The notes under the pieces were generated by a model, which was not told the origin of the DNA, did not search any database, and was given only the letters and a program-made list of their open reading frames with translations. A program made the position numbers and the translations under genes. From Deltaproteobacteria bacterium (GTDB lineage Bacteria; Bdellovibrionota_B; Oligoflexia; Oligoflexales; CAIYRB01), in NCBI GenBank assembly GCA_016874735.1, contig VGTI01000002.1, forward strand, positions 9,501 through 73,500: a stretch of DNA of 64,000 nt, given 5' to 3'. Each line of letters begins with the position of its first letter. Position 1 is the stretch's first letter. Shown piece after piece: positions 22,388 through 39,475 of this stretch.

Positions 22388-22430
22388 TTGTTACTTTTGA
22401 AGCTCGAGCTCAAGAGATCAGTGGGAAGCA

Positions 22431-22823
22431 TTACTCAGCCGTCCCCAGTTTTGAGAAACTTTTGGTGTTATGACAACCAACGCAATCTACCTTTTGTGGA
22501 TGAGGTTCTGCTGGTCGTCTATAGGCGTGACATTTATTACATGACGATGGTTTAGGATCATGGTCGTAGCTATTGACCGGCACCCAACCCGACCGATCAT
22601 CTTTTGGTACATGACACTCCTGACACTCACCTCCACCGCCATGAACCTCGTCATCAATTGGAGCCGGTCGCTGGGAAATATGACAGGTAGAACATGTGTT
22701 ATCGGCGAGAAACGCACCGTGCTCGAATGATGGTCTCACCGCTTGTTGATCACCAATAGTCGGAGTTCTCGGAACACACCCAAAAGCAAAAAAATACGTA
22801 AGAAACGGCAAAAGCTGCTTCAT
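22431..22823 (-). CDS. small tetraheme c-type cytochrome, possible lipoprotein
   Basis: Four CxxCH motifs (CSTCH, CQECH, CNKCH, CVGCH) in 130 aa. The signal ends ...FFAFGC, which is lipobox-like. ATGA overlap with the upstream gene. Confidence 0.85.
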   Translation of the reverse strand: MKQLLPFLTYFFAFGCVPRTPTIGDQQAVRPSFEHGAFLADNTCSTCHISQRPAPIDDEVHGGGGECQECHVPKDDRSGWVPVNSYDHDPKPSSCNKCHAYRRPAEPHPQKVDCVGCHNTKSFSKLGTAE

Positions 22824-24172: not shown

Positions 24173-24243
24173 GTAATGAAGGTCCTAGATCGACCACGGC
24201 AGGCAGGGCGCAGCACTTCTTATTATACTGTATGATCTGGAAC

Positions 24244-25029
24244 CTAGGTCTTATTCGGTGATTTTGATCTAAATTTTTGTCTTGCGAATTGCCTAAGCTC
24301 ATCGATGATCACGACTAAAAACGCGACATTAGATGCATAACGCCAGAATAGACGCCGCGGATCTTTCAGAATCCGGTATATCCATTCAAGCCCCCAATTC
24401 TGCATCCATTTTGGCGCTCTTTTTAGTCTTCCAGCAGCGAACTCAATAGCTGCACCGACCCCAAGAGCAACATCGACGTGAAGGTCCTTAGCATATTTTG
24501 CGATCCAAACTTCTTGCTTAGGACTACCTAAACCGACGAACAAAATATCCGGCTTCAGCGCATTAATTTCGGCGATTGCGCGTCCGTTTTCATCTAGATC
24601 ACTTTCAAATCCGTATGGTGGGGCATAGTAGCCGACCTTTAAAGCGGCGGCCCGTGAACGCAACTGATCGGCTGCTGCCTCCGCAGCCCCAGGTGGCCCC
24701 CCAAAAAGGAAAATGGAAAGATTGGCGCGAGCTGCAGCGACTGCAAGTGCGGGCAACAGATCGGCACCCGTGACGCGTTCGGGAAGCGGTTTACCTTGTA
24801 GGCGTGACAACCAAACTATAGGCATACCGTCGGCCAGTGAGAGCACGGCACCACGATATATTGCCGCCAGACTACTCGACCTGCGACACCTCAAGACGTG
24901 ATCGACATTTGGCGTCACGACAAGACGACAATCGCCCGCACCAATGACTGCAAGTTCAATAATTCTCTGTACAGCCTGATCCAGGTTCAGGGGATCAAAG
25001 GAGAGCGAGGCTAGGTTGACCCGCTGCAT
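24244..25029 (-). CDS. WecB/TagA/CpsF-family (GT26) glycosyltransferase
   Basis: The start is taken at MQRVNLASLSFDPL (ATG 25029). Family-like blocks: VVTPNVDHV, ADGMPIVW, LFGGPPGAAEAA, ILFVGLGSPKQE, IYRILKDPRRLFWRY. The upstream extension to 25224 would overlap the divergent gene. Confidence 0.75.
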   Translation of the reverse strand: MQRVNLASLSFDPLNLDQAVQRIIELAVIGAGDCRLVVTPNVDHVLRCRRSSSLAAIYRGAVLSLADGMPIVWLSRLQGKPLPERVTGADLLPALAVAAARANLSIFLFGGPPGAAEAAADQLRSRAAALKVGYYAPPYGFESDLDENGRAIAEINALKPDILFVGLGSPKQEVWIAKYAKDLHVDVALGVGAAIEFAAGRLKRAPKWMQNWGLEWIYRILKDPRRLFWRYASNVAFLVVIIDELRQFARQKFRSKSPNKT

Positions 25030-25062
25030 AAAATTGCCCCCAAAATAAAGTTTTGTTTTGCA

Positions 25063-25071
25063 TGATACAAT
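25063..25071 (+). promoter_or_regulatory. candidate extended -10 promoter element (TGATACAAT) for the GT4 gene
   Basis: TGnTACAAT lies in the divergent intergenic region. It is consistent with GTG 25109 (AGGA 8 nt upstream) being the real start. No good -35 element. Confidence 0.3.
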
Positions 25072-25108
25072 ATGGACACCATACTCGTTCCGCCTCAGGA
25101 TCCACCAC

Positions 25109-26296
25109 GTGGCCAATATCCTCATCATATCAGCTTTGCAAATTTTTCCCGTTGTTTCTGGTGGCCAGCAGCGGACAGCATCGATTGCACTCGAGCTTGC
25201 AAAAGCCGGCCACCATGTGCGCATTTATTCGCTAATTGGGCGCAAACGCGACATGCTAAGGTTTACGGGCGAAACCGAGGCAACCATCAGCGCCAACTTG
25301 TATGAATTTGTTTGCAGGCCTTTCACCTTGTGGGCGAAGGCTATGGTTGCCTATAAGCTTGGTCTCCCACCCCTATGGGCAAAGGAGCTTATCGAGCAAC
25401 CTGATACGACGCTCAATCTGTGGATTGCCCAATCAGAGATAATCATCCATGATTTCCCCTATACATTTGCCGCCCTACGCGCACACCGTAGACTGCAAAT
25501 CTTAAACAGCCACAATATCGAGCATCAGCTTTTTCGCACCAAAGATGGGAGGGATAGCAAACTCTCCGAAAGCGTCCGAAAACTTGAGTATACCGCTATC
25601 GCTGGTGTCGCCTTGGTGGCTTGTGCATCACTAGACGAAGTCACAGTATTTTCCGCAGCTTTTCCTAATAAAGAATTTATACATATTCCAAACAGCATCA
25701 AACCCAAAAATCAGAATCCCCCTCCCAAAAAGCAGACCAGTACTATGCGTCAGGATCTTGGAATTAATGATGATGCAACCGTTCTGATCTTCCCGGCAAG
25801 TCGTTATGGTCCCAACATCGAGGGAATGGATTTCCTAAGGAATTTCAGCATTAAGCACGAGTCTTTTCTACGAAAAGAGCGCATCATGATTCTAGTTGTA
25901 GGCAGTGTCGCAACGGGCCAGCACAGACTTGGGCAATTCTTAACCACAGGTCCGGTTTGTGACATAGAACCATATTTTCATGTTGCGGATTGGGGTATCA
26001 ATCCTATCTTCTATGGCTCCGGAACTAGCATTAAAGTTGCAGAATTTATCGATTTTGACTTACCCATACTGACTACCGAGGTTGGATCACGCGGATTTAC
26101 CTTCGTCGACCAAAGCACTGCCATTTTTTTTACAAAAGATAATCTTCTCGAAAAACTCACAATGTTACCAAAAGATCTGCATCTACTGAGGAAGATGCGT
26201 CAGGAGGCCCGCATGGCTAACGCGCACTTTCTCGATCCGACTGCAGCAGTGGCGCCGTTACTGAGAGCTATCAGTGGCTGGAACCCACTCTCATGA
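25109..26296 (+). CDS. GT4-family (GT-B) glycosyltransferase
   Basis: N-terminal ILIISALQIFPVVSGGQQRTASIALELAKAGHHVRIYS matches the GT4 N-terminal pattern. A C-terminal E-x7-E-like block is present (KVAEFIDFDLPILTTEVGSRG). The ORF opens at ATG 25058. GTG 25109 is preferred, but the start is uncertain. Confidence 0.7.
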   Translation: MANILIISALQIFPVVSGGQQRTASIALELAKAGHHVRIYSLIGRKRDMLRFTGETEATISANLYEFVCRPFTLWAKAMVAYKLGLPPLWAKELIEQPDTTLNLWIAQSEIIIHDFPYTFAALRAHRRLQILNSHNIEHQLFRTKDGRDSKLSESVRKLEYTAIAGVALVACASLDEVTVFSAAFPNKEFIHIPNSIKPKNQNPPPKKQTSTMRQDLGINDDATVLIFPASRYGPNIEGMDFLRNFSIKHESFLRKERIMILVVGSVATGQHRLGQFLTTGPVCDIEPYFHVADWGINPIFYGSGTSIKVAEFIDFDLPILTTEVGSRGFTFVDQSTAIFFTKDNLLEKLTMLPKDLHLLRKMRQEARMANAHFLDPTAAVAPLLRAISGWNPLS

Positions 26297-26409
26297 CACA
26301 TGATTTAAGGTCGTGCTAGTATTGAAGTATCTCTCACTAGTCCCGCGGATTACCCTCACATCTCATGCTACTAACAATCATAAAAAGACTAATTTCTCGC
26401 CTGGGTGTA

Positions 26410-26793
26410 ATGCCTGCCATCGGCAACGATCTGGTTTTCGTGCCGGATGTTGCCTCGTCTCACCATCAGTTTGGTGAACGGTATTTAAAATTTATTTTTA
26501 CTGACAACGAGATTCTCGACTGCATGCACAAGGATGGTAGTTATTCCTACACCAGCCTAGCCGCCCGCATTGCAGCCAAAGAATCTGTGATGAAGTTACT
26601 TAAACCGGCGCGGGATCAACTTCTACCTTGGCAATCGATAGAGGTCCGGCGCGACCCCACTGGTGCGGCCGATCTAATTTTGCATCGAGAAGCCAAGGCC
26701 ATGGCAGAGAAACAAAGTATTATCTCGCTTTCGCTCTCGCTTGCTCATGAACACCAATATGCCTCCGCGTTAGTATTAGCGACTCAAATCTGA
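26410..26793 (+). CDS. AcpS-type 4'-phosphopantetheinyl transferase
   Basis: MPAIGNDLVFVPDV (GxD), FTDNEILDC, ARIAAKESVMKLL and LSLSLAHEHQYASALVLA match holo-ACP-synthase blocks. The ORF opens at 26365 and the start is uncertain. Confidence 0.7.
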   Translation: MPAIGNDLVFVPDVASSHHQFGERYLKFIFTDNEILDCMHKDGSYSYTSLAARIAAKESVMKLLKPARDQLLPWQSIEVRRDPTGAADLILHREAKAMAEKQSIISLSLSLAHEHQYASALVLATQI

Positions 26794-26840
26794 TCATCGA
26801 TCTTAAGATTTATTTTTATCCAAGCGAGGAGTTTACTGCC

Positions 26841-27077
26841 ATGCAAGATAAGATTCGAAAGATTCTAAAGGATCATGGACGTCTCGCAGTTGATGCCAAT
26901 TCACTGGCTGAAACCACTGATCTTTACCAGTCGGGAATGACGTCACATGCCAGTGTTAACGTCATGCTAGCTCTCGAAGGAGAGTTTGATGTCGAATTTC
27001 CAGACCATATGTTAAAACGCAGTGTTTTTGAGAGTATTGCCTCTATTACGAGCGCGATTAATCAGATTAAGAACTGA
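26841..27077 (+). CDS. dedicated acyl/aminoacyl carrier protein (78 aa)
   Basis: Size, acidic helical character and the DLYQSGMTSHASVNVMLALEGEFDVEF block fit a carrier protein, with a Ser at the start of helix 2. GAGGAG RBS upstream. Confidence 0.8.
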   Translation: MQDKIRKILKDHGRLAVDANSLAETTDLYQSGMTSHASVNVMLALEGEFDVEFPDHMLKRSVFESIASITSAINQIKN

Positions 27078-27111
27078 CTCGCCAAAAACCTGCCAACCTG
27101 GAGACCTAACT

Positions 27112-28281
27112 TTGGTCTTACCCTCACATTCACCCTTGGTGGAACTTGCGCGTACTGTCGGTGCGGGTACGGCGGCGAATTTTGCTGATCAAGTTGACGC
27201 CGATGCTCGCTTTCCCCACGAAGCGGTCACGCAACTAAGAGCGCATCGCCTGCTCAGTTGCTATGTTCCCCAGAGTTTGGGTGGCCATGGGGCATCACTG
27301 AATGAGCTCGCATTTATGTGCGAGGAGCTAGGAAAACACTGCAGTGCCACGGCCATGGTTTTTGCCATGCATCAGATTCAAGTAGCTTGCTTGGTGCATC
27401 ATTGTCACGATGACAGACATCTCAAGGCATATCTCGCTCAACTCACACAAAATCAACACCTAATCGGGTCTGTAACGTCAGAGGTCGGAGTCGGTGGCGA
27501 TATGCGGTCGAGTGTTTGTGCCGTCGATGTAAATGGCGATGAATTCACCTTAAACAAGAACTCCACGACGTCATCCTACGGAGCTCAGGCCGACGACCTA
27601 CTAGTGACTGCAAGGACCTCTCCGACAGCTCCAAGTAGCGATCAATCGCTGGTGTTACTTGCCAAGGGGCAATTCACCATGGAACAAACTGGCAACTGGA
27701 ACCCCATGGGTATGCGCGGAACCGGGAGCGCGCCCTTTAAACTGACGGGCAAAGGGCTCACTTCTCAAATCATGAGCACCCCGTTCGCGACTATTTCTGC
27801 TCGTACCATGGTACCGGTCTCTCACCTATTGTGGGCCGCGACTTGGGTTGGTAACGCCGTTGCCTCAATGACGCGGGTCAAAAGCTTCATCAAACAGCAA
27901 GCTAGATCGAATCCGGGCAGCCTACCGCCTACGGCACTCCGCATGGCTGAATTGGCTCCGAGTATACAGCTCCTGCGAACCTCGTATCGTTATCTTCTTA
28001 CCGAATACGAGAGTATCAACGCAGATCCGACAAGATACGACGAGCTCTCAACCATCGGATATGCCGTTCGGATGAATAACCTTAAACTTTCTGGCTCACA
28101 ACTTATCGTCGATATTGCCAATAAGGCACTTCAAATTTGTGGTGTCGCTGGCTACAAAAACGACTCCAAATTCGCCATGGGACGCATCCTGAGAGACGCA
28201 CATGCTGCCGCTCTGATGGTCGGAAATGATCGCATACTTAACTCAAATGCCAACATGCTTATGATTCTCAAGGGTGATTGA
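27112..28281 (+). CDS. acyl-CoA-dehydrogenase-fold flavoprotein, probably acting on a carrier-protein thioester
   Basis: ACAD-like blocks: AMVFAMHQ, GSVTSEVGVGGDMRS, QICGVAGYKNDSKFAMGRILRDAHAAALMVGNDRI. TTG 27112 follows GGAGA by 8 nt. The longer ORF from 27022 would overlap the carrier-protein gene. Confidence 0.75.
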   Translation: MVLPSHSPLVELARTVGAGTAANFADQVDADARFPHEAVTQLRAHRLLSCYVPQSLGGHGASLNELAFMCEELGKHCSATAMVFAMHQIQVACLVHHCHDDRHLKAYLAQLTQNQHLIGSVTSEVGVGGDMRSSVCAVDVNGDEFTLNKNSTTSSYGAQADDLLVTARTSPTAPSSDQSLVLLAKGQFTMEQTGNWNPMGMRGTGSAPFKLTGKGLTSQIMSTPFATISARTMVPVSHLLWAATWVGNAVASMTRVKSFIKQQARSNPGSLPPTALRMAELAPSIQLLRTSYRYLLTEYESINADPTRYDELSTIGYAVRMNNLKLSGSQLIVDIANKALQICGVAGYKNDSKFAMGRILRDAHAAALMVGNDRILNSNANMLMILKGD

Positions 28282-28297
28282 TCAGGAGATACTTGCT

Positions 28298-29209
28298 ATG
28301 TCACAGGCATTCACAGCTAAGGGTCTATTTGATGCGCTCGTGCAAGCTGGTCATATTATTCCAGTTGGCGTCAAGGGAGTGTTTGGACGCGGACCTGTGT
28401 TCGAAGATGTACTCGACCGGTTCGAACGCCTGGTCAGCAGGATCGCTGCTCCAGATCGCGCACGCAAGATGCATTTTCCACCGTGCATCGATCGGCAGGT
28501 CTTAGAGAAAAGTTTGTTTCTAGAATCATTCCCTCACCTAGGCGGAACGGTATTCAGCTTCACTGGCGACGATGCCGGGCATCGAGAGTTAAACTCCAGG
28601 ATAGCACAAGGAAAACCATGGTCTGATCTCCAGACTATGACGGACGTTTGCCTTACACCGGCAGCCTGTTATCCCGTCTATCCCACCTACACTGGAACGC
28701 TACCGAAAGACGGGGCGCTGGTGGATTTGGTGGGATGGGCTTTTAGACATGAGCCATCAGACGAGCCCACTCGGATGATGGCATTTCGTGTGCGTGAATT
28801 TATCCGTCTTGGCCCTAGTGATGTCGTTGTGCCTTGGCGCGATCTCTGGCTGCAACGCGGGCTAGAATTACTGCTTTCACTGGGGTTACCTGCCAAGGCA
28901 GAGGTCGCTGCTGATCCTTTTTTTGGTCGCGGAGGACGCATGCTCGCGGCCAATCAGAAGGAACAAAAGCTTAAATTTGAAGTCGTAGTCCCCGTCATTT
29001 CTCAGGAAAAGCCCACTGCCGTATGTTCGTTTAATTACCATCAGGACAAATTTGGCAGCACCTTCGGTATCAAGACTGTCGACGGTCAAATCGCTGAGAC
29101 TGCATGCCTTGGGTTTGGACTAGAGCGCGTAGTGATGGCCCTATTTAGGACTCATGGCATGAGTCCTGGCGCCTGGCCGAAATCTGTGCGCGAGGTTCTC
29201 TGGACATGA
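28298..29209 (+). CDS. amino acid:[carrier-protein] ligase, a truncated class-II (SerRS-like) aminoacyl-tRNA-synthetase homologue
   Basis: Class-II motif 2 WAFRHEPSDEPTRMMAFRVREF and motif 3 GFGLERVVMALF are present. There are Cys/Glu/Cys candidates for a Zn site (AACYP, RHE, TACLGFG). At about 303 aa it has no N-terminal tRNA-binding arm. ATG 28298 lies 7 nt after AGGAGA. Confidence 0.75.
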   Translation: MSQAFTAKGLFDALVQAGHIIPVGVKGVFGRGPVFEDVLDRFERLVSRIAAPDRARKMHFPPCIDRQVLEKSLFLESFPHLGGTVFSFTGDDAGHRELNSRIAQGKPWSDLQTMTDVCLTPAACYPVYPTYTGTLPKDGALVDLVGWAFRHEPSDEPTRMMAFRVREFIRLGPSDVVVPWRDLWLQRGLELLLSLGLPAKAEVAADPFFGRGGRMLAANQKEQKLKFEVVVPVISQEKPTAVCSFNYHQDKFGSTFGIKTVDGQIAETACLGFGLERVVMALFRTHGMSPGAWPKSVREVLWT

Positions 29210-30189
29210 AAATTTCCTGCATTGGTCCTATCGACGCGACTACCTATCAGCAACATTCTTTGCATCGGAGCGAGAAATCCTGGCCCGAAACAAACTGCTA
29301 CATCGATGTATGGATCGAGATTATTCACGCCCTGAATTTAGATCCGACGGCGATGCTTCCCATGGTATTTGCGATCGACTTCGAGGGCGATCAATGGACT
29401 TTCTATAAACCACCTCACGAAGATCTTCATCAGCTGTATGGTATCGACATACAGGAACTCAATGTCTGGAATTCATTGTTGGATCATTGTATTGGGCAAA
29501 TACAGCGTCGCCGTCTCGTCCTCATTGAAACCGATGCCTACTTCTTACCTGACACCGCCGGCACCGATTACCGTACCAAACACACAAAGACCACGATAGG
29601 CATCCAGTCTATCGACTTAGTTGGCAAGGTCATGGGTTACTTTCACAATGCTTCCTACTACGAACTCCGCGATGAAGATTTCGTCAAGACATTTCGCCTA
29701 GATCAACCGAATGATTCAAACCATATGCCATTTCTCGCCGAGTTTGCCCGAATTGACAGGCTCTCTGGACTGACCTCAAAGGAACTAGCCGCCTGCTCTC
29801 GCCAGCTTCTATGTAAACATTACGCCCGTCGTCCGCTGGCAAATCCGCTAGTAGCATTTGCAACTCGTTACGAGAGTGATGTGCAATGGTTGAAAGCAGC
29901 CGGTTTGGCAACTTTTCATAGCTATGCTTTCGCCACTCTGAGACAAATAGGTTCCGCGTTCGAACTCGGAGGATACTATCTCCGGTGGCTAGGCGCACAA
30001 GGTCAGCTCAATTGCGGTAACATGCCAGAGCAATGTGAGGCCCTATCACAAGCAGCTAAATCACTCATGCTGAAATCAGCACGCGCTGTCAATACAGGCA
30101 AATCTTCTGATTTTAGTGGTCTGCTTGGTGACATGGCGGCCTCTTGGGACGCGATCATGTGCACTTTAGGTCACGAGCTCAATGCATGA
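29206..30189 (+). CDS. DUF1839/BtrH-N-like protein, candidate carrier-protein-dependent transferase
   Basis: 327-aa soluble ORF coupled on both sides by ATGA overlaps. The N-terminal SWPETNCYIDVW contains a candidate nucleophilic Cys. The family call is from memory and is weak. Confidence 0.45.
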   Translation: MKISCIGPIDATTYQQHSLHRSEKSWPETNCYIDVWIEIIHALNLDPTAMLPMVFAIDFEGDQWTFYKPPHEDLHQLYGIDIQELNVWNSLLDHCIGQIQRRRLVLIETDAYFLPDTAGTDYRTKHTKTTIGIQSIDLVGKVMGYFHNASYYELRDEDFVKTFRLDQPNDSNHMPFLAEFARIDRLSGLTSKELAACSRQLLCKHYARRPLANPLVAFATRYESDVQWLKAAGLATFHSYAFATLRQIGSAFELGGYYLRWLGAQGQLNCGNMPEQCEALSQAAKSLMLKSARAVNTGKSSDFSGLLGDMAASWDAIMCTLGHELNA

Positions 30190-32711
30190 CGGTAACTACA
30201 CCTAATGATTTTGACTTTGTGCAACATCTAAACGATGGGTGGGAATACACATGGGTAACGCCTAGTGTCGTCACGAATCCCAACCAATTACTAGAATTGT
30301 CACCCGTGTGGCACAAAGCTATTGTGCCCGGCACTGTCGCGGGATCCGAGAGAGCTAGCGGGATTTTCAATTATGGTGCGACACGGTATGATGAGCATGA
30401 ATATTGGTACCGTTGCCGCGTAAGACTCCCTGAGGGCGATCGCGTCCAATTTAACTTCGCCGGCCTCGCTACCATCGCTGAAGTCTTTTGGAACGACACT
30501 GTCATCTTAGCCTCCGACAACATGTTTCTGCCGCAGACCGTCGATGCAACACCGTTGGTCAAAGATGGCACTCTCTATATCCGATTCCGTGCTGTCGATG
30601 AAGCTTTGGAGCGGAAGCTACCACGTCCCAAATGGCGCACACGCCTTGTCGAAAACCAGCAATTGAGGTGGATTCGCAGGACCCTCCTAGGCCGAATCCC
30701 AGGATGGTCACCACCCACACCGCCTACCGGACCATGGCGTGGCATTTCGATTACAGCAAATATGTCCGTAGCCCACGAAATCATCGAGGCAAAGCAATTT
30801 TTCAATCCAAGTCAGGGCCATATAGTTTTGACAATCAGACTGCAGTTATTGCTACTTCGTCAAGGACGTTTGGATCAAGCGTACCTCGCCATTGATGATA
30901 GATCCTATGCTATGACCGTTTCGGATCTCAAAGATCATAGCTATGAATTATCTTGCTCCATTGTCATCCAGTCACAGGATTTCTGGTGGCCGCACACGCA
31001 CGGTGAGCCCAAATTATTTCAGCTCCGTGTGACTTATAACTATAACGGCAATCCACGCGCGCTGGACATTGGCACGACCGGATTTCGCCATTTGGAAGTC
31101 GATCAACGCGAGGGTAACTTTCGCGTTATATTAAACGGCGAACCAATCTACTGCCGCGGTGCTTGTTGGACTCCGATTGATCCGATCAACTACGCAAGTG
31201 ATAAAAAAACCATGCAAATCATGCTCGGAGCCGCCAAAGATGCGGGCATGAATATGCTCCGATTGGTTGGATCAATGGTGTACGAGACTCCTGACTTTTA
31301 TCAGGAGTGCGATCGCTTAGGCATACTCATCTGGCAAGATTTCATGTTTTCAAATTTAGATTATCCATTCCAGGACGATACCTTTCGCAGTAGCGCTGCG
31401 AGTGAGGTCACAACTTTTCTAAATATGACCACTCTTAGCCCTTGCATTACTATCCTCTGCGGCAACAGTGATATCGAGCAGCAAACAGCGATGCTAGGCC
31501 TGCCACGCGCTATGTGGCGCCCCTCCTTCTTTGCCCGTGAGCTACCCGCTCTGGTAAAAACCATTAGACCCGATGCAATCTATGTCCCGTCGAGTCCGTC
31601 CGGTGGCGATTTGCCTTTTGAGACCGACCAATCCATCTCTCATTACTACGGAGTCGGAGCTTATCTACGTCCTCTCATGGATGCACGACTAGCCTCGGTT
31701 AAGTTTGCAGCTGAATGCCTCGGCTTTGCCAACGTCCCGGATGCTACGACCATCGATTCGTGGCTTAAGCACGGTGAGACTCCCCCAACTCATCCTAGGT
31801 GGAAGGAAAGAGTACCTCGTGATAGTGGCGCCAGCTGGGACTTTGATGATGTCCGAGACCATTATTTAAAGCTGCTGTTCGGTGTTGACCCGCTACATCT
31901 ACGCTACGCAAATCTAGATCGGTACCTATTCCTGAGTCGTATCACTTCGGGCGAGGTCATGCTCCGAACGATTCAGGAATGGCGCCGCGTGGGATCTAGT
32001 TGCTCGGGATCTATTGTTTGGTGGCTAAAGGACCTTTGGCCCGGTCCTGGCTGGGGAGTCATTGACGCCAACTGCAGACCCAAAGCCGCCTATCACTTCC
32101 TGCGGCGAGCCATGGCGCCAATCACCATATTTTTCATTGACGAAGGCCTAAACGGACTAGATCTTCACGTCATTAACGAATCACCAGAGCAAGTCACCGG
32201 CGAACTCGCAATCGAATTTCTCAATGCAGACAGTGTCAGTGTAGGCCGTTATACCTCTAATCTAACCTGCGAGGGACGCTCTAGCCTCAAGCTTCGCGGT
32301 GCTGCGATAACTGACCACTTCAATGATGCGAGCTATGCATACCGTTTCGGCCCCCCGGCCCATAACGTCGTAAGGGCCACCTGGAAGGAATCTACCTCCC
32401 AACATTTGATAGCGGAATGCTTTCATTTTCCGGCAGGCTACGATTTACCAAAAGCGTCTCATTTAGACCTTACGTACACCCTACAAAAAGTCGATGACCG
32501 TCATTGGCACATGCACCTAATGGCGCAAAGTTTTATCCAGTATCTGCATCTAGAATTACCTCATTGTAAAGTGTCCGATAACGACTTTCATCTCTACCCG
32601 AACTCACCCCGAGTCATTCAACTGGAATTGGATCAAGATCAATCTGCGGTGGAAGGTCAAATCTCGTCATTGAACGCAACACATTCATTGACTATCCGCC
32701 CTAATAGCTAA
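30186..32711 (+). CDS. GH2-family glycoside hydrolase (beta-mannosidase/exo-glucosaminidase-like), no signal peptide
   Basis: WWPHTHGEPKLF, NMLRLVGSMVYETPDFYQECDRLGILIWQDFMF and FAAECLGFANVP follow the GH2 beta-mannosidase blocks. The start is at the ATGA overlap 30186-30189. Confidence 0.75.
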   Translation: MTVTTPNDFDFVQHLNDGWEYTWVTPSVVTNPNQLLELSPVWHKAIVPGTVAGSERASGIFNYGATRYDEHEYWYRCRVRLPEGDRVQFNFAGLATIAEVFWNDTVILASDNMFLPQTVDATPLVKDGTLYIRFRAVDEALERKLPRPKWRTRLVENQQLRWIRRTLLGRIPGWSPPTPPTGPWRGISITANMSVAHEIIEAKQFFNPSQGHIVLTIRLQLLLLRQGRLDQAYLAIDDRSYAMTVSDLKDHSYELSCSIVIQSQDFWWPHTHGEPKLFQLRVTYNYNGNPRALDIGTTGFRHLEVDQREGNFRVILNGEPIYCRGACWTPIDPINYASDKKTMQIMLGAAKDAGMNMLRLVGSMVYETPDFYQECDRLGILIWQDFMFSNLDYPFQDDTFRSSAASEVTTFLNMTTLSPCITILCGNSDIEQQTAMLGLPRAMWRPSFFARELPALVKTIRPDAIYVPSSPSGGDLPFETDQSISHYYGVGAYLRPLMDARLASVKFAAECLGFANVPDATTIDSWLKHGETPPTHPRWKERVPRDSGASWDFDDVRDHYLKLLFGVDPLHLRYANLDRYLFLSRITSGEVMLRTIQEWRRVGSSCSGSIVWWLKDLWPGPGWGVIDANCRPKAAYHFLRRAMAPITIFFIDEGLNGLDLHVINESPEQVTGELAIEFLNADSVSVGRYTSNLTCEGRSSLKLRGAAITDHFNDASYAYRFGPPAHNVVRATWKESTSQHLIAECFHFPAGYDLPKASHLDLTYTLQKVDDRHWHMHLMAQSFIQYLHLELPHCKVSDNDFHLYPNSPRVIQLELDQDQSAVEGQISSLNATHSLTIRPNS

Positions 32712-32718
32712 GAGACCC

Positions 32719-34545
32719 ATGCACTCATCAACGATCATCAATGAACGTGATCCGTCGAAAAACCAATACGCGGCCGACTTTGAGCGCGCCTTCGGTCGTC
32801 CAACCTGGTTTGGGCCCAGTGATAGTCCACTTTTTGGCTGGCATCACATGGCAAGTGAGCCTCAAAGATCTGTGGCGGCAGTTATCTGCGCTCCCTTTGG
32901 CCACGAGTATATGGTCGTGCACAGATCGTTGAGAAAACTGGGCGCACTGATGGCATCTCATGGATTTCACACACTGCGGTTTGACTATCACGGCACCGGG
33001 GATTCAACTGGCCTTGCTAGCGACCCAGGACGACTGGAAGCCTGGATCCAGAGTACCTGCCATGCAGTTACCGAGGTTCGTCGGGCATCACGTTGCGACC
33101 AGGTGATGCTCATAGGGCTGCGCTTAGGAGCAACGATTGCGGCACTGGCGTCTAAACGCTGTCGGGTTGACGGCCTAATCATGCTAAGCCCAGTGATCAA
33201 CGGTCGTAAATATACACGAGAGCTAGTTGCCTTTGCCGGCATGAAGAATGTAGCGACTGATAACAGCGGTCACACCGTAATTTCGGAGGTAGTCGGTTAC
33301 CCCCTAACGGATGAAACTAAACATGAACTGTCAAAGATTGACTTGTCTTATCCCGGATCGTGTCGCGTTAATCAATGTCTACTTGTATCGCGAGCGGATC
33401 TTCCAAGCTCTGAGAATAAACTAGCCGCTTCACTCACTGCAGACGGAGTTACCACTAAAACTATCGAGGATTCCGGATTCGCATCACTGCTCACAGATGA
33501 CGCCTACGATGCCCAGGTGCCAGAAGAACTCTGGACAAAGGTGGCATCGTGGGCGTGCGGAACCTACCCAGATTTTCAGACAGCCCTTCCTATAACCCCG
33601 ACCGCCATGACGAGCAAAGTGACATTTGTTTCTCAAGGTCAGGAGATCTCTGAGCGCGTCTTTGTGCTCCATGGAGTGACGGCGATCTTAACCACCGCTA
33701 TCACCGAACCTGATCACAATTTGCCTACCATTTTGATTTCGAACACTGGTGCCAACCATCGCGTGGGCAATCATCGTCTCTGCGTTACTATGGCAAGGAC
33801 TTGGTGTGCTCTAGGATTTCGCGTGATTCGTTACGATCGTCCCGGCACAGGAGACAGTCTTAATCCACCTGGTAGCAGCGAAAACGATATCTATGCCACA
33901 AGTGGTGTCGGAGCACTAGTCAGCCTCATGAACTTCTGTGAACAAGATCATGGCGCCCCTAGTTTCATACTCGCAGGCTTATGCTCCGGGGCATACTTTT
34001 CTTATCAAACAGCTCTTTTAGACCGGCGCGCTCAAGGGCTACTGATGATCAATCCTCTAACTTATCATTGGCGAGAGGGAGACTCTGTCGCTAGACCCGA
34101 GCGTCGATCGACTTATAAATCAACGAGATTTTATCTTGCCGCAGCCACTAGACCCTCTACGTGGCGGCGACTTTTGCGACGAGAGATTGATTTTGGCGGC
34201 ATTGCTTCAACCTTAGGTAGTCGAGTTCTCCAACGCGCGACGCATCAGTGGCGTGCTAGCCTCGCCTGGGCTTTAAGACATGAACCGTCGGTATCGCCTA
34301 TCGGCCAGAGCTTTCTTGATCTCGAAGGAAGAGGTGTAACCATCTTCATGATCTTTGACGCAGCTGAAGGTGGCATCGATTTGATGGAAGAACACATGCA
34401 CAAGAATGCTGGTCTGATGCGCCAGAGGCCCCTATTCCGCCTTGAAATCATTCCAGGGGCTGATCACACTTTTACACCACTATGGTCTCAATCTCACCTG
34501 GTAACCATGATCGCAGATCACCTGCACCATCGCTTTGGCAGATAA
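32719..34545 (+). CDS. fusion of two atypical alpha/beta-hydrolase domains
   Basis: The two halves each have an HGTGDS/RPGTGDS loop and a nucleophile elbow. The elbows read IGLRLGA (Arg, codon 33121-33123) and AGLCSGA (Cys, codon 33982-33984) instead of GxSxG. Confidence 0.65.
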   Translation: MHSSTIINERDPSKNQYAADFERAFGRPTWFGPSDSPLFGWHHMASEPQRSVAAVICAPFGHEYMVVHRSLRKLGALMASHGFHTLRFDYHGTGDSTGLASDPGRLEAWIQSTCHAVTEVRRASRCDQVMLIGLRLGATIAALASKRCRVDGLIMLSPVINGRKYTRELVAFAGMKNVATDNSGHTVISEVVGYPLTDETKHELSKIDLSYPGSCRVNQCLLVSRADLPSSENKLAASLTADGVTTKTIEDSGFASLLTDDAYDAQVPEELWTKVASWACGTYPDFQTALPITPTAMTSKVTFVSQGQEISERVFVLHGVTAILTTAITEPDHNLPTILISNTGANHRVGNHRLCVTMARTWCALGFRVIRYDRPGTGDSLNPPGSSENDIYATSGVGALVSLMNFCEQDHGAPSFILAGLCSGAYFSYQTALLDRRAQGLLMINPLTYHWREGDSVARPERRSTYKSTRFYLAAATRPSTWRRLLRREIDFGGIASTLGSRVLQRATHQWRASLAWALRHEPSVSPIGQSFLDLEGRGVTIFMIFDAAEGGIDLMEEHMHKNAGLMRQRPLFRLEIIPGADHTFTPLWSQSHLVTMIADHLHHRFGR

Positions 34546-34549
34546 ATCT

Positions 34550-34957
34550 ATGAACATCACCTACAAATCAAATAGCTCGATAGACTTGTCAGAAGTCATA
34601 GCTCTCTACAAGGCCTCGACCCTGGGACTGCGACGACCTGTTGATGATCGACAGTGCATGCAACAGATGATGCGTCACGCAAATTTAATCGTCTCAGCCT
34701 GGGACGGGACTAAACTTGTCGGCCTTGCCCGAAGTCTCAGTGATTTTGCTTTTTGCACCTATCTCTCAGATCTAGCTGTTGACGTGGCTTACCAACATAA
34801 AGGCATCGGCAAAGAACTCATCCGTCAGACACAAAGCCTAGGTGGCAAGGCTACAATCTACCTATTCTCAGCACCGGCAGCAGTCGCGTATTACCCGAAG
34901 ATTGGATTTAATCGAGGTGACGGATTTATTCTGCGTGCTGACGAGACGATACCATGA
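34550..34957 (+). CDS. GNAT-family N-acetyltransferase
   Basis: The acetyl-CoA motif A is present (LAVDVAYQHKGIGKELI). About 135 aa. ATG 34550 is preferred over TTG 34535. Confidence 0.75.
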   Translation: MNITYKSNSSIDLSEVIALYKASTLGLRRPVDDRQCMQQMMRHANLIVSAWDGTKLVGLARSLSDFAFCTYLSDLAVDVAYQHKGIGKELIRQTQSLGGKATIYLFSAPAAVAYYPKIGFNRGDGFILRADETIP

Positions 34958-36573
34958 ACAAGTATCGTACTTGGTGGCGCGTACTCGGGAAGCGTAGCTT
35001 GCAGCTTGCCTCTTTGTGGAGCCTTGCTAGCGGTACGGGTCTCTGTCGCACTTTTGACATCCAACTTGGGTTGCCTGAAAAATTCGATCATGCCATCAGT
35101 CCCCTTATTTACGGACTCGGAACCTACATGGGTGAAGCCCATACTGCTAGCAGTATCTGGTCACTACGGCCCACCTACCTGCGCTTCGGCGGCAATATGG
35201 CCGAAGTGTTCAATTGGCAACTGGATACTTGGAACACCGGATCCGACTGGTACTTCACAAATTTTAAGGCAGAGAAACCTGGTCTGCTCGCGCGCTTTAT
35301 GAGCGAAAATCAGTTGCATGGGGTAGCCTCAGCTGTGGTGATACCTACGATGGGGTGGGTAGCCAAGGATGCACACTCGGGAAGCTTCCCCGAGACTGTC
35401 TATGGCAAGCAGGTCGATAGTCGTAACGGCTTTGGAAACGGTATCAGGGCGAATAACGGCGAGAAGATTATCGCCGATCCAAACCGTGCTCTCACGCCCG
35501 TAACATCGTCATGGACGACAAATCTCGTAAGCTTCCTCAAGACTCGATTTGGGAATCTCCCGCACCGTTACATTATCGGTAACGAACCCATGCTGTGGCA
35601 CGAAACTCATCGTGACGCTCATCCGACACCCGCTACTTACGATGAGGTGCTGACAAAGTTTTTGGCAACTGCGACCGCAGTAAGAAAATCTGATCCAGCC
35701 GCAGTCATCATCGGTCCCGCGCTTTGGGGCTTTCTCGCAATACAACAATCCGCATTCGACGAACGCGGATCATGGAGCCAGTTCCGTAAATTCACAGATC
35801 GTGACAGGCACGGTGGGAAGCCTTTTCTTGAATGGTTTTTAGCAGCTGTGAAACGTGAAGAGCAAAGTAGTGGGATGAAGCTACTGGATGTAGTCGACGT
35901 CCATTTCTACCCAGCCAACGAAGAGATAAGGCAACAACCCTCAACCAATGAGGCGATTCGTAAAAAGAGGATACGCTCGGTACGGTCGCTTTGGGATCGA
36001 AGCTACCAGGATGAATCTTGGATTAATGACAAAATCTACTTCATACCCCGACTAAAGGAGCTCATCGACCATATTAGCCCTGGCTTGAAACTTGCGATCG
36101 GTGAATATAATTTTGGCGCCGAAGACGATATAAGCGGTGCAATTGCCTTGGCCGAGACTCTAGGAGTCTTCGCTCGCGAAGGCCTTTGGGCTGCCAACTA
36201 CTGGACTATTCCCAAAGAAAATTCCCCCGCCTACTTCGCATTCAAAATATTTCGCAACTACGACGGACTTGGTGCATCCTTTGCCCCTATTTACGTCGCA
36301 AAATCCAGCTTGATAAATGATGAAGTTGCAGTATTCACAGCATTTGATCCAGACCGCCGGCTCTATACTTTGGCGGTGCTGAACAAGTCGTTGACGGACG
36401 ATTGCCAAATCCGCCTCGTCACCACCTCTAAAAAGTCATCGCCAACAATTCGCCACTTCTCCTATACAGAACAGTACCCGCAAGGGATCCGCGAGAATAG
36501 CGTTGCGACAGCTAAGTCCGGACTTATCACAGTCCCCAAACTTAGCGTTAACATGATCGAAATGCGGCTCTAA
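34954..36573 (+). CDS. secreted GH44-like glycoside hydrolase
   Basis: Signal-like N-terminus. LRFGGNMAEVFNWQLDTWNTGSDWYF, IIGNEPMLWHETHRDAHP and AIGEYNFGAEDDISG resemble the GH44 blocks that carry the acid/base and nucleophile Glu. ATGA overlap with the GNAT gene. Confidence 0.65.
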   Translation: MNKYRTWWRVLGKRSLQLASLWSLASGTGLCRTFDIQLGLPEKFDHAISPLIYGLGTYMGEAHTASSIWSLRPTYLRFGGNMAEVFNWQLDTWNTGSDWYFTNFKAEKPGLLARFMSENQLHGVASAVVIPTMGWVAKDAHSGSFPETVYGKQVDSRNGFGNGIRANNGEKIIADPNRALTPVTSSWTTNLVSFLKTRFGNLPHRYIIGNEPMLWHETHRDAHPTPATYDEVLTKFLATATAVRKSDPAAVIIGPALWGFLAIQQSAFDERGSWSQFRKFTDRDRHGGKPFLEWFLAAVKREEQSSGMKLLDVVDVHFYPANEEIRQQPSTNEAIRKKRIRSVRSLWDRSYQDESWINDKIYFIPRLKELIDHISPGLKLAIGEYNFGAEDDISGAIALAETLGVFAREGLWAANYWTIPKENSPAYFAFKIFRNYDGLGASFAPIYVAKSSLINDEVAVFTAFDPDRRLYTLAVLNKSLTDDCQIRLVTTSKKSSPTIRHFSYTEQYPQGIRENSVATAKSGLITVPKLSVNMIEMRL

Positions 36574-38054
36574 TCGGAGTGGGCTTTGATGTCGGCAAGC
36601 TTACTCACAATAATGCCATAGACAGGTGTAATCCCAACCACGACGATGCGCCAGCCAACAGCGATCTGTTGAATTACATCGAAGTATATTCCTGCCAACA
36701 GACACGGTGCGGCACTGGCGAGGATCATCTTTGCGACACGCGAAAAATCAATTGCGACTGGAAAGATATGCTGTATCGCAACAACGACAAAAAGCTCCGC
36801 AACTACAGTAGCTAGGGCAGATCCGGCGGCGGCACCACCCTCACCCCAAAGTTTCATACAAAATGGAGCGAGCTGTAAATTGAGACCAATGTTAAGTAGC
36901 AAACTAAAGCCAGTGACTACGACAAATTTGCGCCCGTCACTAATGATATTCAGACACGAACCAAGTAGCACGTTGAGATAGGTCAAACTCAGTACGGGAG
37001 CAAGATAACAGATAGCTCTGTAGCTTGCACGATACTCACTGCCAAAAATCGTATCCGCAATCATGTCGGGGAGTATCATAAGGCCCAAGGTAAGGGGCAT
37101 CGAAAGGACCACGAGTAAACGCACAGCATGCTTTACAAGTCGGGTAAACTGCTCTTTACTCTGGTGCCAGGCTTTAGATAAGGCTGGTTGCAGACCGGCC
37201 TGCATCACGGGTACTAGCAAAAGTGCCATTCCTTTCAACCGATCGGCTGCCCCAAAGTAGGCGACTTCGGAATTACCGGCTATAAAGTTCAGCATCGTCG
37301 TATTGACGTTACCGTAAATCTCGACCATCGCACCTACGGCAAAAAACGGCAGCGACTGTGTGACTATTTGACGCAGCAGGACGATGTCAAATCTCCCACT
37401 AAGATATCCCAGGCGCTTGGACCGCCAAACTAAGAAGCTTACGCCAAGTAGCTCTGAAGTTGCGTAGGCGGTTGCAAGTACGACCACCGAAGTCCTGAGC
37501 CATAGACAGCCAAAAATCATGAAGATGAGTGCAATTCTGACCGCCATCTCCTGCCTAGCCATTTGTGCTGAGTCACCGATTGCCACATAGCTTCGCCGCA
37601 GTATAGCGCGTTGGAGACTCGCACAGCCGTTAAACACGCCCATAGCAGCACAGCAATAAAGCGCATCGAGTTCGGCTCCGGTGAACCACAGGGCCACGAG
37701 CATGATCAGCCAAATGCATACGCCCCACAGCGCCGTAGCAGGTAAAAGCGTCGGTAGAATTCGGCTAATTTTTCCATGATTTAAAGGTATCTCGCGCACT
37801 ATGTAAGCCGTAACGCCAAGGGGCAGCACAGTAAAAAACATGGCGCTAAATGACTCTGCAAAGTACAGCACTCCCAGAGCATCGCGACCAATAGCGCGGG
37901 GAAGTATCAGCCGAATCACTAAACCCATCGCCATGGAAAAAAGGGCCGCCAACCCTAAATGCGACATCGTTTTAATCGCCTGCGTTCCCAGGTCAACTTC
38001 ATGCCCTGAGTTTGGCGTTTGTACACCTACAGCGGTGGGAGGCGGTTCAGACAT
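36570..38054 (-). CDS. Wzx-like polysaccharide flippase (MOP superfamily)
   Basis: 494 aa with about 12-14 hydrophobic helices and typical size and organisation. It follows the GT2 gene after a 14-nt gap. Confidence 0.75.
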   Translation of the reverse strand: MSEPPPTAVGVQTPNSGHEVDLGTQAIKTMSHLGLAALFSMAMGLVIRLILPRAIGRDALGVLYFAESFSAMFFTVLPLGVTAYIVREIPLNHGKISRILPTLLPATALWGVCIWLIMLVALWFTGAELDALYCCAAMGVFNGCASLQRAILRRSYVAIGDSAQMARQEMAVRIALIFMIFGCLWLRTSVVVLATAYATSELLGVSFLVWRSKRLGYLSGRFDIVLLRQIVTQSLPFFAVGAMVEIYGNVNTTMLNFIAGNSEVAYFGAADRLKGMALLLVPVMQAGLQPALSKAWHQSKEQFTRLVKHAVRLLVVLSMPLTLGLMILPDMIADTIFGSEYRASYRAICYLAPVLSLTYLNVLLGSCLNIISDGRKFVVVTGFSLLLNIGLNLQLAPFCMKLWGEGGAAAGSALATVVAELFVVVAIQHIFPVAIDFSRVAKMILASAAPCLLAGIYFDVIQQIAVGWRIVVVGITPVYGIIVSKLADIKAHSD

Positions 38055-38068: not shown

Positions 38069-39277
38069 TTACCTTCGCTCCGTTCGTACCCACCGACGCG
38101 GAGCACGTCCAAGTGCAATGACGGTACGCCACAAGGCGTAATAGGGGAGCTGAACCAATGCCGTGAGTGTCGCCCAGGGCAGGCCGAACCTGAGAAACGG
38201 GCTGAGAACGTAGACTCCCAAAAACAAACCATAGCTGGCTAGCAGGATTGCGTTAGCTATACGACTAAGACTCGCAACACCAAAACCGCTAGCAACAAAT
38301 GCCATCACACTCACCAGATACCACGCTACGATCGTCGTGAATGATGGCATTGTGAGATCAATGGCCCAGAGAATTTTTCTGGTTTTAGGAGCATTTGCCT
38401 GCAGTATCGGTTTTCTTAGTTGAGCCCAAAGGCCGTGACGACCCTTTTCCCAGCGCCTCCGCTGACTCACCGATACCCGCCCGGATATAGGCATTTCGGC
38501 GCGGAATATAGCAGTTGGAATAAACTGAACGCTTTCGCCTGCTAAACGTAACCGCCAACTAAACTCGAGATCTTCAGCCAGGCCACCCGCCTGCCACGGG
38601 ACTCTTTCCAGTGCCTCGCGGCTAAAGCACATGCCATTGCCGCGGAGATGAGCGCTCCCTGTAATGAATTGGGTTCCGATCTGGAATGTGCCATTGAACA
38701 AAGCGAAGCCGAAGGCCATTAGTTTGGTCCGCCAGCTCTCCATTTCGTTAGCAACGACATCAAGTCCCTGTATCCAGCGCCCTCCGCCTAGGAGCGGGGC
38801 TTGTAGTGCGCGCAAGGCCTGAGGGTCGACTAACGTATCGGCATCGACAACCACAACCGCCTGCACCGCGGTAAACTTTTGGTCCCCAAGGATACGCGGT
38901 AAAACATCTGCGAGAGCATGGCCCTTACTGCGACGTTTTTCATCGCGTCGCTCTAAGACAAAAACCCCAGCAGATCTGGCAATCATCGCCGTGTCATCGT
39001 CGCAATTATCGGCAACGACAATGATCTGTAGTCTATCGGCGGGATACTCGACCCGCTGCAAAGACGCGATGGTGCGACCAATGGAAAGCCCCTCATTGTG
39101 AGCCGGGATGACAACAGCAAATGTCACAGCAGCCTGCTTGGACTCGATTTCTGGTTGAGGTCTGCGGCGCCCCAGAGTGATAAACCCAGAAATACCCAGG
39201 AAAAGAATATAAGGACTCATCGCCACAAGAACGGCAATGCTCACCAAGTTTAGCCAGCTTACTGAGTAAAATTCCAA
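38069..39277 (-). CDS. membrane-integrated GT2 glycosyltransferase, synthase-type (NodC/PgaC/cellulose-synthase-like)
   Basis: N-terminal TM segments, then VVIPAHNEG, VVADNCDDDT, VVVDADT (DxD) and QRRRWEKG (QxxRW), and C-terminal TM helices. TTG start in the ORF track; the start is uncertain. Confidence 0.8.
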   Translation of the reverse strand: MEFYSVSWLNLVSIAVLVAMSPYILFLGISGFITLGRRRPQPEIESKQAAVTFAVVIPAHNEGLSIGRTIASLQRVEYPADRLQIIVVADNCDDDTAMIARSAGVFVLERRDEKRRSKGHALADVLPRILGDQKFTAVQAVVVVDADTLVDPQALRALQAPLLGGGRWIQGLDVVANEMESWRTKLMAFGFALFNGTFQIGTQFITGSAHLRGNGMCFSREALERVPWQAGGLAEDLEFSWRLRLAGESVQFIPTAIFRAEMPISGRVSVSQRRRWEKGRHGLWAQLRKPILQANAPKTRKILWAIDLTMPSFTTIVAWYLVSVMAFVASGFGVASLSRIANAILLASYGLFLGVYVLSPFLRFGLPWATLTALVQLPYYALWRTVIALGRAPRRWVRTERR

Positions 39278-39398: not shown

Positions 39399-39475
39399 TG
39401 GTACGGGTACGCCGACTTGAACGGCGGACCTCTACGATGTCAACGTAGCGCTCTAACCAACTGAGCTATACCCGC
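39399..39475 (-). tRNA. tRNA-Val (anticodon GAC)
   Basis: Folds by hand into a cloverleaf. Acceptor GCGGGTA/TACCCGT (G1-U72), D arm GCTC-AGTTGGTTA-GAGC, anticodon arm CTACG-TTGACAT-CGTAG, T arm CGCCG-TTCAAGT-CGGCG. CCA is encoded. Confidence 0.9.

Follow-up and report, generated by a model that had tools for sequence, protein, structure and literature searches.

The gene at 28298..29209 on the forward strand of a 64,000-nucleotide stretch of a Deltaproteobacteria bacterium genome (assembly GCA_016874735.1, contig VGTI01000002.1, positions 9,501 to 73,500; the whole stretch is called the window below) encoded, as judged by its family, a true tRNA-independent amino acid:[carrier-protein] ligase (aa:CP ligase). 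The ligase gene was part of a widespread cassette of seven genes, which also encoded an optional 4'-phosphopantetheinyl transferase (PPTase), an acyl carrier protein (ACP), a flavoenzyme of the acyl-CoA dehydrogenase (ACAD) fold, a DUF1839 protein, a GH2 beta-mannosidase-like protein and a double hydrolase. We held the family assignment and the cassette definition, taken together, with high confidence. The window contained one more copy of this cassette, in an informative polysaccharide context, and its DUF1839 protein was a candidate user of the aminoacyl-carrier protein that the ligase was predicted to produce.

The ligase and the conserved cassette

The 303-aa ligase scored 399.9 bits against the family model NF005479 (PRK07080), which was above the equivalog cut-off of 357, and the match covered residues 8-302. 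The Bll0957 structures 3mey and 4h2w matched its residues 23-301 with E values of 1e-70 to 1e-72. A first-pass annotation made from the DNA letters alone had already proposed an aa:CP ligase on the basis of sequence motifs, and both the profile and the structure comparison bore this out. The protein had class-II motif 2 (FRHE...RVREF) and motif 3 (GFGLER), as well as C124, E152 and C270, which were invariant in the alignment of ligase homologues and corresponded to the Cys/Glu/Cys positions of Bll0957 and of the type-2 seryl-tRNA synthetase (SerRS) 3w3s. We take these positions to be the zinc-binding site. SerRS models and 3w3s aligned to the ligase only over SerRS residues ~311-507 of 518-527, that is, over the catalytic core. 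Therefore, the protein did not have a tRNA-binding arm, as the annotation had also stated, and can be described as a truncated class II enzyme similar to the methanogen-type SerRS. A full-length tRNA-charging SerRS was rejected for this gene since its product was too short and belonged to another family. The nearest relatives of the ligase, with 65-95% identity, were from uncultured Pseudomonadota, Undibacterium and Polyangiaceae.

Both the structure and the biochemistry of this ligase family were described in 2010-2013. Mocibob et al. (2010, 2013) reportedly characterised the aa:CP ligases Bll0957, Bll6282 and Atu2573, which were said to use substrates of the size of glycine, alanine or serine. 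In Bradyrhizobium, the acyl-CoA dehydrogenase gene bll0958 adjoined the characterised ligase gene bll0957 (PMC10888616). According to a 2022 review, the biological role of the aa:CP ligases was still unknown (PMC9437257). This agreed with the first-pass annotation, and our literature searches for a later physiological role returned nothing beyond papers on DltA, reviews and passing mentions in omics studies.

Five co-directional open reading frames (ORFs) were located on the forward strand between 26365 and 30189, and the ORF and profile searches reproduced the earlier description of them. Two of the three coupled junctions that had been proposed were real, namely the ATGA overlaps at 29206-29209 (ligase/DUF1839) and 30186-30189 (DUF1839/GH2). 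The third one, an ACAD/ligase overlap at 28274-28281, required a GTG start of the ligase at 28274 and did not stand. Every close homologue in the alignment started at the position of the ATG at 28298, an AGGAG was present at 28284-28288 (9 nt 5' of this ATG), and the gene caller, the one used for public assemblies, likewise placed the ligase start at 28298. Together, these observations favoured a 16-nt spacer rather than an overlap, and the junction was still tightly coupled. For the ACAD gene, the caller chose the TTG start at 27112, while the longest ORF began at 27022. The forward run was unbroken past DUF1839 and included the GH2, fused hydrolase, GNAT and GH44 genes, and its junctions from 29206 through 34957 were overlapping or separated by 4-8 nt. 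These downstream genes, as well as the flippase and GT2 genes on the reverse strand next to them, had been correctly listed by the annotation. A promoter and terminator scan of 24000-39600 produced counts at chance level and was of no aid in bounding the transcription unit.

To define the cassette we used the neighbourhoods of ligase homologues at 80 loci, one genome per species, with ligases 55-95% identical to that of the window. Homologues of every protein from the polysaccharide island of the window were counted by tblastn, and the counts should be read as floors because several loci were short contigs. The ligase was present at all 80 loci, and DUF1839 and the ACAD were found at 76 loci each. 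The carrier protein followed with 66 loci (55-91% identity; some of the remaining loci were truncated contigs), the GH2-like protein with 62, the fused hydrolase with 50 and the PPTase with 46. The ACAD gene was directly 5' of the ligase in 75/80 loci, and the DUF1839 gene was no more than 60 nt 3' of it in 73/80. Thus, the annotated module of five genes, with the GH2 and the hydrolase as an appended polysaccharide part, had to be redrawn: both of these genes belonged to the cassette core, and the PPTase was a dispensable member. The expected linkage of the ligase to a carrier protein was, in turn, conserved.

The cassette consisted of two blocks, one with the ACAD, ligase and DUF1839 genes and another with the (PPTase), ACP, GH2 and hydrolase genes. 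They occurred in either order and also divergently, and they remained adjacent. Adjacency that was kept through such rearrangements was strong evidence that the two blocks work together. The lineages with the cassette included Burkholderiales, Lysobacterales, Steroidobacteraceae, Methylococcales, Myxococcota and Gemmatimonadota. Moreover, an ACP-ACAD-ligase-DUF1839-GH2 operon with a ligase of 47-55% identity was present on replicons of Azospirillum, Rhizobium leguminosarum and Mycetohabitans, and the hydrolase gene came next in two of these three cases. The GH2/DUF1839/ligase/ACAD/ACP neighbourhood had been included in the supplement of a 2023 survey, with a vague functional guess only (PMC10318531).

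One locus (L093, 6335-13804) had the PPTase, ACP, ACAD, DUF1839 and GH2 genes without an aa:CP ligase, and a gene for an AMP-binding ligase was located just upstream. This looked like a non-orthologous displacement of the loading enzyme, and such a swap supported ACP loading as the conserved step. Distant homologues of the ligase were found in other surroundings. A Priestia plasmid (L087) carried ACP, ACAD and ligase genes together with genes for Ddl, an alanine racemase, an alanine permease and an ATP-grasp enzyme. On a Bacillus mycoides plasmid (L089), a gene for a BtrH_N protein was nearby, and on a Streptomyces plasmid (L088) the ligase homologue was part of a zwittermicin-like set for aminomalonyl-type extender units beside polyketide synthase (PKS) and nonribosomal peptide synthetase (NRPS) genes.

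DUF1839 and its partner enzymes

The DUF1839 gene (29206..30189, forward strand; PF08893, E 1.4e-104) encoded a protein with a predicted papain fold and a C-terminal helical domain. Its AlphaFold (AF2) model, made from 45 homologues, had a mean local confidence (pLDDT) of 91.4 and a predicted template-modelling score (pTM) of 0.89. When the model was compared with the PDB by Foldseek, the matches were CtaG (E 4e-8), AziU3/U2 and CcbD, with E values of 4e-8 to 6e-4 and TM scores of 0.54-0.64. These matches were full-length (~325-375 aligned columns) and included both the papain-like N-domain and the helical C-domain. The CcbD entries among them included complexes with the amino-sugar substrate and with a peptidyl carrier protein (PCP) domain. 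A phmmer search of PDB sequences with DUF1839 returned no match, and a Pfam scan even at E 10 returned PF08893 alone. The invariant residues of the family were N30, C31, Y32, D116, D121, T130, H147 and H238. In the model, N30-C31-Y32 stood at the start of the first long helix, and C31 was the first residue of helix 31-42.

The papain-like enzymes CtaG and CcbD work by a ping-pong mechanism: an acyl or aminoacyl group is first moved from a carrier protein to the catalytic Cys, and an amine then receives it (PMC12865890, PMC12945683). For CcbD, and likewise for BtrH, this amine belongs to an amino sugar (PMC12865890, PMC12945683). DUF1839 was also reported to be remotely related to DUF6005, a family found beside the petrobactin asb genes (PMC10318531); we equated DUF6005 with AsbE by inference. 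The predicted fold and the genomic context thus made DUF1839 a candidate carrier-protein-dependent amide synthase or transacylase, with C31 as its putative catalytic residue.

The loading part of the cassette was represented in the window by two small genes, and the annotation was right that the ligase was accompanied by its own PPTase and carrier protein. The AcpS-type PPTase (26365..26793, forward strand) was identified by PF01648 (E 1.7e-11) and by TIGR00556, with 66 bits against a cut-off of 45. In a Polyangiaceae locus (L082), it was replaced by an Sfp-type PPTase. The dedicated 78-aa carrier protein (26841..27077, forward strand) matched NF005480/PRK07081 with 107 bits (cut-off 72) and PF00550 with E 4e-6. 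Its phosphopantetheine-attachment Ser was expected in the motif GMTSH, and its gene was ~1.2 kb 5' of the ligase.

The next gene (27112..28281, forward strand) encoded the ACAD-fold flavoenzyme. Its N and C domains passed the Pfam gathering scores for Acyl-CoA_dh, and the M domain was below. The best PDB matches were butyryl- and short-chain acyl-CoA dehydrogenases (E 1e-14 to 1e-15). The position of the MCAD-type catalytic Glu (YEG) was occupied by V or I in 61/61 family members, and the IVD-type catalytic position was an invariant Ser-His in these 61 cassette proteins. A canonical fatty-acyl dehydrogenase role was rejected since there was no catalytic Glu. Moreover, in six gammaproteobacterial loci (L016, L027, L028, L033, L038 and L046) a flavin reductase gene (PF01613) opened the cassette, directly before the (PPTase)-ACP-GH2 genes. 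In view of the absence of Glu from both catalytic positions and of the pairing with a flavin reductase, the tethered residue is more likely to be the substrate of an oxidase or oxygenase than of an alpha,beta-dehydrogenase, and the pairing itself hinted at a two-component monooxygenase.

The product of the GH2 gene (30186..32711, forward strand) was beta-mannosidase-like, with matches to 5n6u (E 6e-47) and to an exo-beta-glucosaminidase (E 6e-10), and the nucleophile Glu in its F-x-x-E-C motif was invariant. The next gene (32719..34545, forward strand) encoded two fused alpha/beta-hydrolase domains. The N half was similar to TIGR03101 (hydr2_PEP; 82.2 bits against a cut-off of 202.75) and the C half to TIGR03100 (hydr1_PEP; 110.5 against 168.45), so both halves were relatives of these families and not members. 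The nucleophile elbow of the N-domain had an Arg in GLRLG (residues 133-137), which was conserved across the family. In the C-domain the elbow residue was Cys422 in GLCSG (residues 420-424), accompanied by D582-H583, and this Cys was invariant. Both R135 and C422 were located at strand-helix elbows in the AF2 model of the protein (pLDDT 86). A Cys nucleophile suits thioester chemistry. A Foldseek search with this model found generic esterases and lipases only and gave no functional clue.

The proposed pathway and its alternatives

According to the scheme that we propose, the AcpS-type PPTase would, as its family suggests, prime the 78-aa carrier protein and so produce the holo protein. The ligase would then activate a small amino acid with ATP and bind it as a thioester to the phosphopantetheine arm, a reaction that was shown for Bll0957. 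Next, the tethered residue would be oxidised or oxygenated by the ACAD-fold flavoenzyme. The Cys31 of DUF1839 would take over the acyl group and form an amide with an amine, similar to CtaG, CcbD and BtrH. The acceptor would most likely be a cytoplasmic amino sugar or glycoside precursor, because the cassette comes with a beta-mannosidase-like GH2 protein, the catalytic carboxylates of which are intact in the family at large, and because WecG-type and further glycan genes keep turning up beside it. Finally, the Cys-type hydrolase domain might off-load, proof-read or re-transfer the acyl group, which is speculative. In the window, the WecG, GT4-like and GT2 proteins would build the polymer, Wzx would flip it and the GH44 enzyme would trim it.

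These polysaccharide genes surrounded the cassette on both sides. On its left, a WecG/TagA/CpsF-family glycosyltransferase gene (24244..25029, reverse strand; PF03808, E 1e-59; TIGR00696, 137 bits against a cut-off of 69; the EpsA-like model NF041872 scored below its cut-off) was divergent from the cassette operon. The forward run began with a 395-aa protein that was a weak match to GT1/GT4-type glycosyltransferases (25109..26296; PF13692, E 6e-5, below the gathering score) and whose conservation 5' of the cassette was confined to L001 and L002. After the fused hydrolase, the run contained a GNAT N-acetyltransferase gene (34550..34957; PF13673, E 1.7e-12), an occasional companion that was found beside the cassette in 7/80 loci (41-78% identity, and 59-78% in six of the seven) and also in L093. 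The last gene of the run encoded an EpsB-like GH44 hydrolase with a signal-peptide-like N-terminus (34954..36573; PF12891, E 1e-54; NF041873, 372 bits, below the cut-off), and it was beside the cassette in only one of the 80 loci (L001). Convergent to the run were the genes of a Wzx-type flippase (36570..38054, reverse strand; PF01943, E 8e-16; PF13440) and of a synthase-like membrane GT2 with a hydrophobic N-terminus (38069..39277, reverse strand; PF13641, E 7e-26; PF13632; PF00535).

The whole island was ~15 kb long. Multihaem cytochrome genes were located on one side of it and tRNA-Val, fusA, rpsG, rpsL, rpoC and rpoB on the other. The tRNA-Val(GAC) gene (39399..39475, reverse strand; ARAGORN and Rfam) marked the island edge next to fusA, and the island may have been inserted there. 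The G+C content at 22-38 kb was 0.49-0.51, slightly under that of the flanks (0.52-0.55). The tuf gene did not follow the rpsL-rpsG-fusA operon (in the region 39541-51111) and was found at 54942-56138, behind a tRNA cluster. Directly upstream of the island, a redox gene cluster (17952-24172, reverse strand) encoded a multihaem cytochrome of 1005 aa, in which c7/c3 and MtrC-like domains were numerous, a 473-aa protein without a family match and a 130-aa class III cytochrome c. Its last gene encoded a 450-aa fusion of ferredoxin and pyridine-nucleotide-disulfide oxidoreductase, which was syntenic in L002. Three reverse-strand ORFs did not have a Pfam match, namely 14399-16825 (808 aa), 750-2162 (470 aa) and 20966-22387 (473 aa). 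The 808-aa and 473-aa ORFs did not have an NCBIfam match either, and the 470-aa ORF was scanned against Pfam alone. Near the right end of the window (62049-63429, forward strand), a gene for an XerC/D-type tyrosine recombinase was followed by a gene for a TadA-like deaminase.

In the other genomes, glycan genes recurred beside the cassette. In tblastn searches with the island proteins, WecG and GT2 homologues were found at 5 of the 80 loci each and Wzx at 3. We also clustered the flanking ORFs of the loci, with a filter on third-codon-position G+C (GC3) against spurious antisense ORFs in high-GC loci. The most recurrent neighbours were Acyl_transf_3 (17 loci, often directly 3' of the hydrolase gene), Abhydrolase_2 (11), GT2 (8) and methyltransferase (7), followed by flavin reductase and AMP-binding ligase (6 each), AsnB, polysaccharide deacetylase and WecG (5 each), and Wza and Wzx (4 each). 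The glycan contexts differed in architecture. For example, the Polyangiaceae locus L082 had genes for Wzy, GT2, Acyl_transf_3, an initiating transferase and WecG, and WecG homologues recurred beside the cassette in other lineages. Two other genes were seen next to cassettes as well: one for a protein with an HTTM domain after the cassette of L082 (17159-18604), and one for a conserved ~430-aa protein with no Pfam match, which in nine Undibacterium loci pointed towards the cassette from the opposite strand (16359-17642 in L081).

Since the cassette of the window formed one tightly coupled run with the GNAT and GH44 genes and had WecG, GT4-like, Wzx and GT2 genes around it, its product was likely to be an N-acyl decoration of the exopolysaccharide. 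For the whole scheme, in which an amino-acid-derived N-acyl group decorates the exopolysaccharide repeat unit, we considered the chances to be evenly balanced. We also considered a wider version, namely a widespread Gram-negative thiotemplated pathway in which DUF1839 would attach an oxidised small amino acid as the N-acyl group to an amino sugar of beta-manno or gluco configuration in a precursor of the envelope or of an exopolysaccharide. This version seemed unlikely.

A number of observations weighed against the N-acyl decoration scheme. The 2023 survey, which also classed DUF1839 as papain-like, assigned to it a non-canonical C-(T/S)-H site (PMC10318531), and an hhalign comparison of the DUF1839 alignment with a BtrH_N protein was not significant (probability 2.9%, E 0.015). 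The acid/base motif of the GH2 proteins was CGNSE in 55/57 members and CGNSD, with an Asp, in the copy from the window. All cassette proteins were without a signal peptide, which limits the possible glycan acceptors to precursors in the cytoplasm. Moreover, the link to glycan genes, which the first-pass annotation had expected to be conserved together with the carrier protein, was recurrent only. Among the 48 loci with a length of 17 kb or more, a seed-based survey found a core glycan-assembly gene in 12 and a gene of any polysaccharide type in 27; these counts were a lower bound and stood without a random-locus control. Finally, stand-alone cassettes with no glycan-assembly gene within 10 kb were present in Undibacterium, Xylophilus, Azospirillum, Rhizobium and Mycetohabitans. 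Such cassettes were found in many genomes, and a dedicated exopolysaccharide is thus not required as the acceptor.

These stand-alone operons, with their unrelated neighbours, argued for a different explanation, in which the cassette would suffice by itself to make a small soluble metabolite, such as an acylated or aminoacylated glycoside or amine, and its siting in the exopolysaccharide operon of the window would be a secondary recruitment or a coincidence. The presence of the cassette on plasmids and chromids, with ligases 55-75% identical across phyla, was consistent with this explanation, and every characterised structural relative of DUF1839 serves a natural-product pathway. On the other hand, no exporter or regulator of the sort usual in metabolite clusters adjoined the stand-alone operons. 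The placement of at least 12/48 loci within glycan-assembly loci of varied architecture also weighed against a soluble product, as did the recurrence of Acyl_transf_3, polysaccharide deacetylase and AsnB-type genes and the overlapping or near-abutting junctions of the window up to GH44. We regarded the metabolite pathway as rather unlikely.

It was less probable still, and in our opinion improbable, that the aminoacyl-carrier protein delivers its cargo to a membrane acyltransferase that forms an ester on an extracytoplasmic glycopolymer, as in the Dlt system. The logic of DltA and DltC was the same, the DltC model weakly matched the carrier protein of the window (E 0.0013), and the Acyl_transf_3 membrane protein of 17 loci was a possible acyltransferase of this kind. 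However, profile searches found no Acyl_transf_3, MBOAT (DltB) or DltD-like family among the island proteins, most of the loci did not have Acyl_transf_3, and the ACAD, DUF1839 and GH2 proteins did not have a role in such a route.

The hydrolase folds of three of the seven proteins, as well as the glycosidase and amidohydrolase genes near the Azospirillum operon, might indicate a catabolic or salvage route in which an aminoacylated or acylated glycoside is broken down by the GH2, papain-like and alpha/beta-hydrolase enzymes. Nevertheless, an ATP-dependent ligase with a dedicated carrier protein and a PPTase represented biosynthetic thiotemplating, the N-terminal hydrolase domain was without a nucleophile and the C-terminal one used Cys, and the cassette did not include a conserved transporter, which made such a route very improbable. 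The least probable explanation, hardly credible in our view, was the synthesis of an aminomalonyl- or hydroxymalonyl-type extender unit for a PKS/NRPS, with the SerRS-like ligase in place of the adenylation enzyme of the zwittermicin-like route: in zwittermicin biosynthesis ACAD-like enzymes act on seryl-derived carrier-protein thioesters, and the Streptomyces plasmid homologue (32% identity) was accompanied by 3-hydroxyacyl-CoA dehydrogenase, PCP, ACAD, acyltransferase, ketosynthase and NRPS genes, but neither the window nor the 80 loci had a ketosynthase, acyltransferase, condensation domain or 3-hydroxyacyl-CoA dehydrogenase, and the conserved partners were different (DUF1839, GH2 and hydrolases).

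Significance and comparison with known systems

What our analysis added to the known ligase family was the full definition of the cassette including the double hydrolase, a model-based structural link between DUF1839 and the CP-dependent amide synthases, the ACAD without a catalytic Glu and its pairing with a flavin reductase, and the presence of Arg and Cys, respectively, at the elbows of the two hydrolase domains. DUF1839 emerged as a candidate user of the aminoacyl-carrier protein; the structures of its structural relatives CtaG and CcbD appeared only in 2023-2025. The functional unit also took in a sugar-recognising GH2 protein and a Cys-type alpha/beta-hydrolase. The exopolysaccharide context provided concrete targets, and Rhizobium, Azospirillum, Agrobacterium and Undibacterium were tractable carriers of the operon. 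If the wider version, a Gram-negative pathway for the N-acylation of amino sugars, is true, the cassette would do in the cytoplasm what D-alanylation does for teichoic acids, and the aa:CP ligases would have a physiological role, for which none has been available since 2010. If the proposed function is confirmed, it would also represent a new acylation chemistry of glycans or metabolites and a second natural use of the aminoacyl-tRNA synthetase catalytic core in thiotemplated biosynthesis.

The closest known systems were those of the Bll0957, Bll6282 and Atu2573 ligases (3mey, 4h2w). The window ligase belonged to the same family, with motifs 2 and 3 and the Cys/Glu/Cys residues in common, and was ~41% identical to the Bll0957 fragment. 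In both cases the ligase was without a tRNA-binding domain and had a small dedicated carrier protein and an adjoining ACAD gene (bll0958 in the case of Bll0957). Unlike in these systems, the window ligase was accompanied by a PPTase of its own, and its gene was located within an exopolysaccharide operon.

For DUF1839, the known counterparts were the papain-like CP-dependent amide synthases CcbD/LmbD (lincosamide), CtaG (closthioamide), BtrH (butirosin) and AsbE (petrobactin). Both DUF1839 and the CtaG/CcbD-like enzymes had a Cys where the first long helix begins, as well as a conserved His within a beta-strand, and in both cases the gene was beside those for a carrier protein and a loading enzyme. 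However, the sequence identity was 11-14%, and DUF1839 formed a separate Pfam family. The GH2 protein of the cassette had the same domain order as beta-mannosidases and exo-beta-D-glucosaminidase (5n6u, BtMan2A and CsxA), and its family conserved the nucleophile Glu and an acid/base motif. In contrast to these enzymes, it was cytoplasmic, was always encoded beside the carrier protein or DUF1839, and in the window copy had an Asp as the acid/base residue.

The fused hydrolase was related to a different system. TIGR03098-TIGR03101 are, we assume, the exosortase A (EpsH1)-associated set of an AMP-forming ligase, a carrier protein, a PLP (pyridoxal phosphate) decarboxylase and hydrolases 1 and 2. 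In that set, the hydr1_PEP/hydr2_PEP pair is beside a CP-loading enzyme in exopolysaccharide loci, and the two halves of the window hydrolase resembled the members of this pair. The loading enzyme of the exosortase A set is an AMP-forming ligase, and in L093 such a ligase stood in for the aa:CP ligase. The window, unlike that set, was without an exosortase, PEP-CTERM or decarboxylase gene, and a search for the exosortase-associated ACP/decarboxylase/hydrolase set found nothing.

Finally, the D-alanylation by DltA-DltC-DltB-DltD resembled the proposed function of the cassette in that a stand-alone ligase and an AcpS-primed carrier protein are used for the decoration of an envelope glycopolymer. 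The ligase of the Dlt system is an ANL enzyme, whereas that of the cassette was a class II aminoacyl-tRNA synthetase homologue, and the window was without MBOAT and DltD. In comparison to Dlt, the cassette would add an oxidation step and a cytoplasmic papain-like transferase, and its hosts were Gram-negative.

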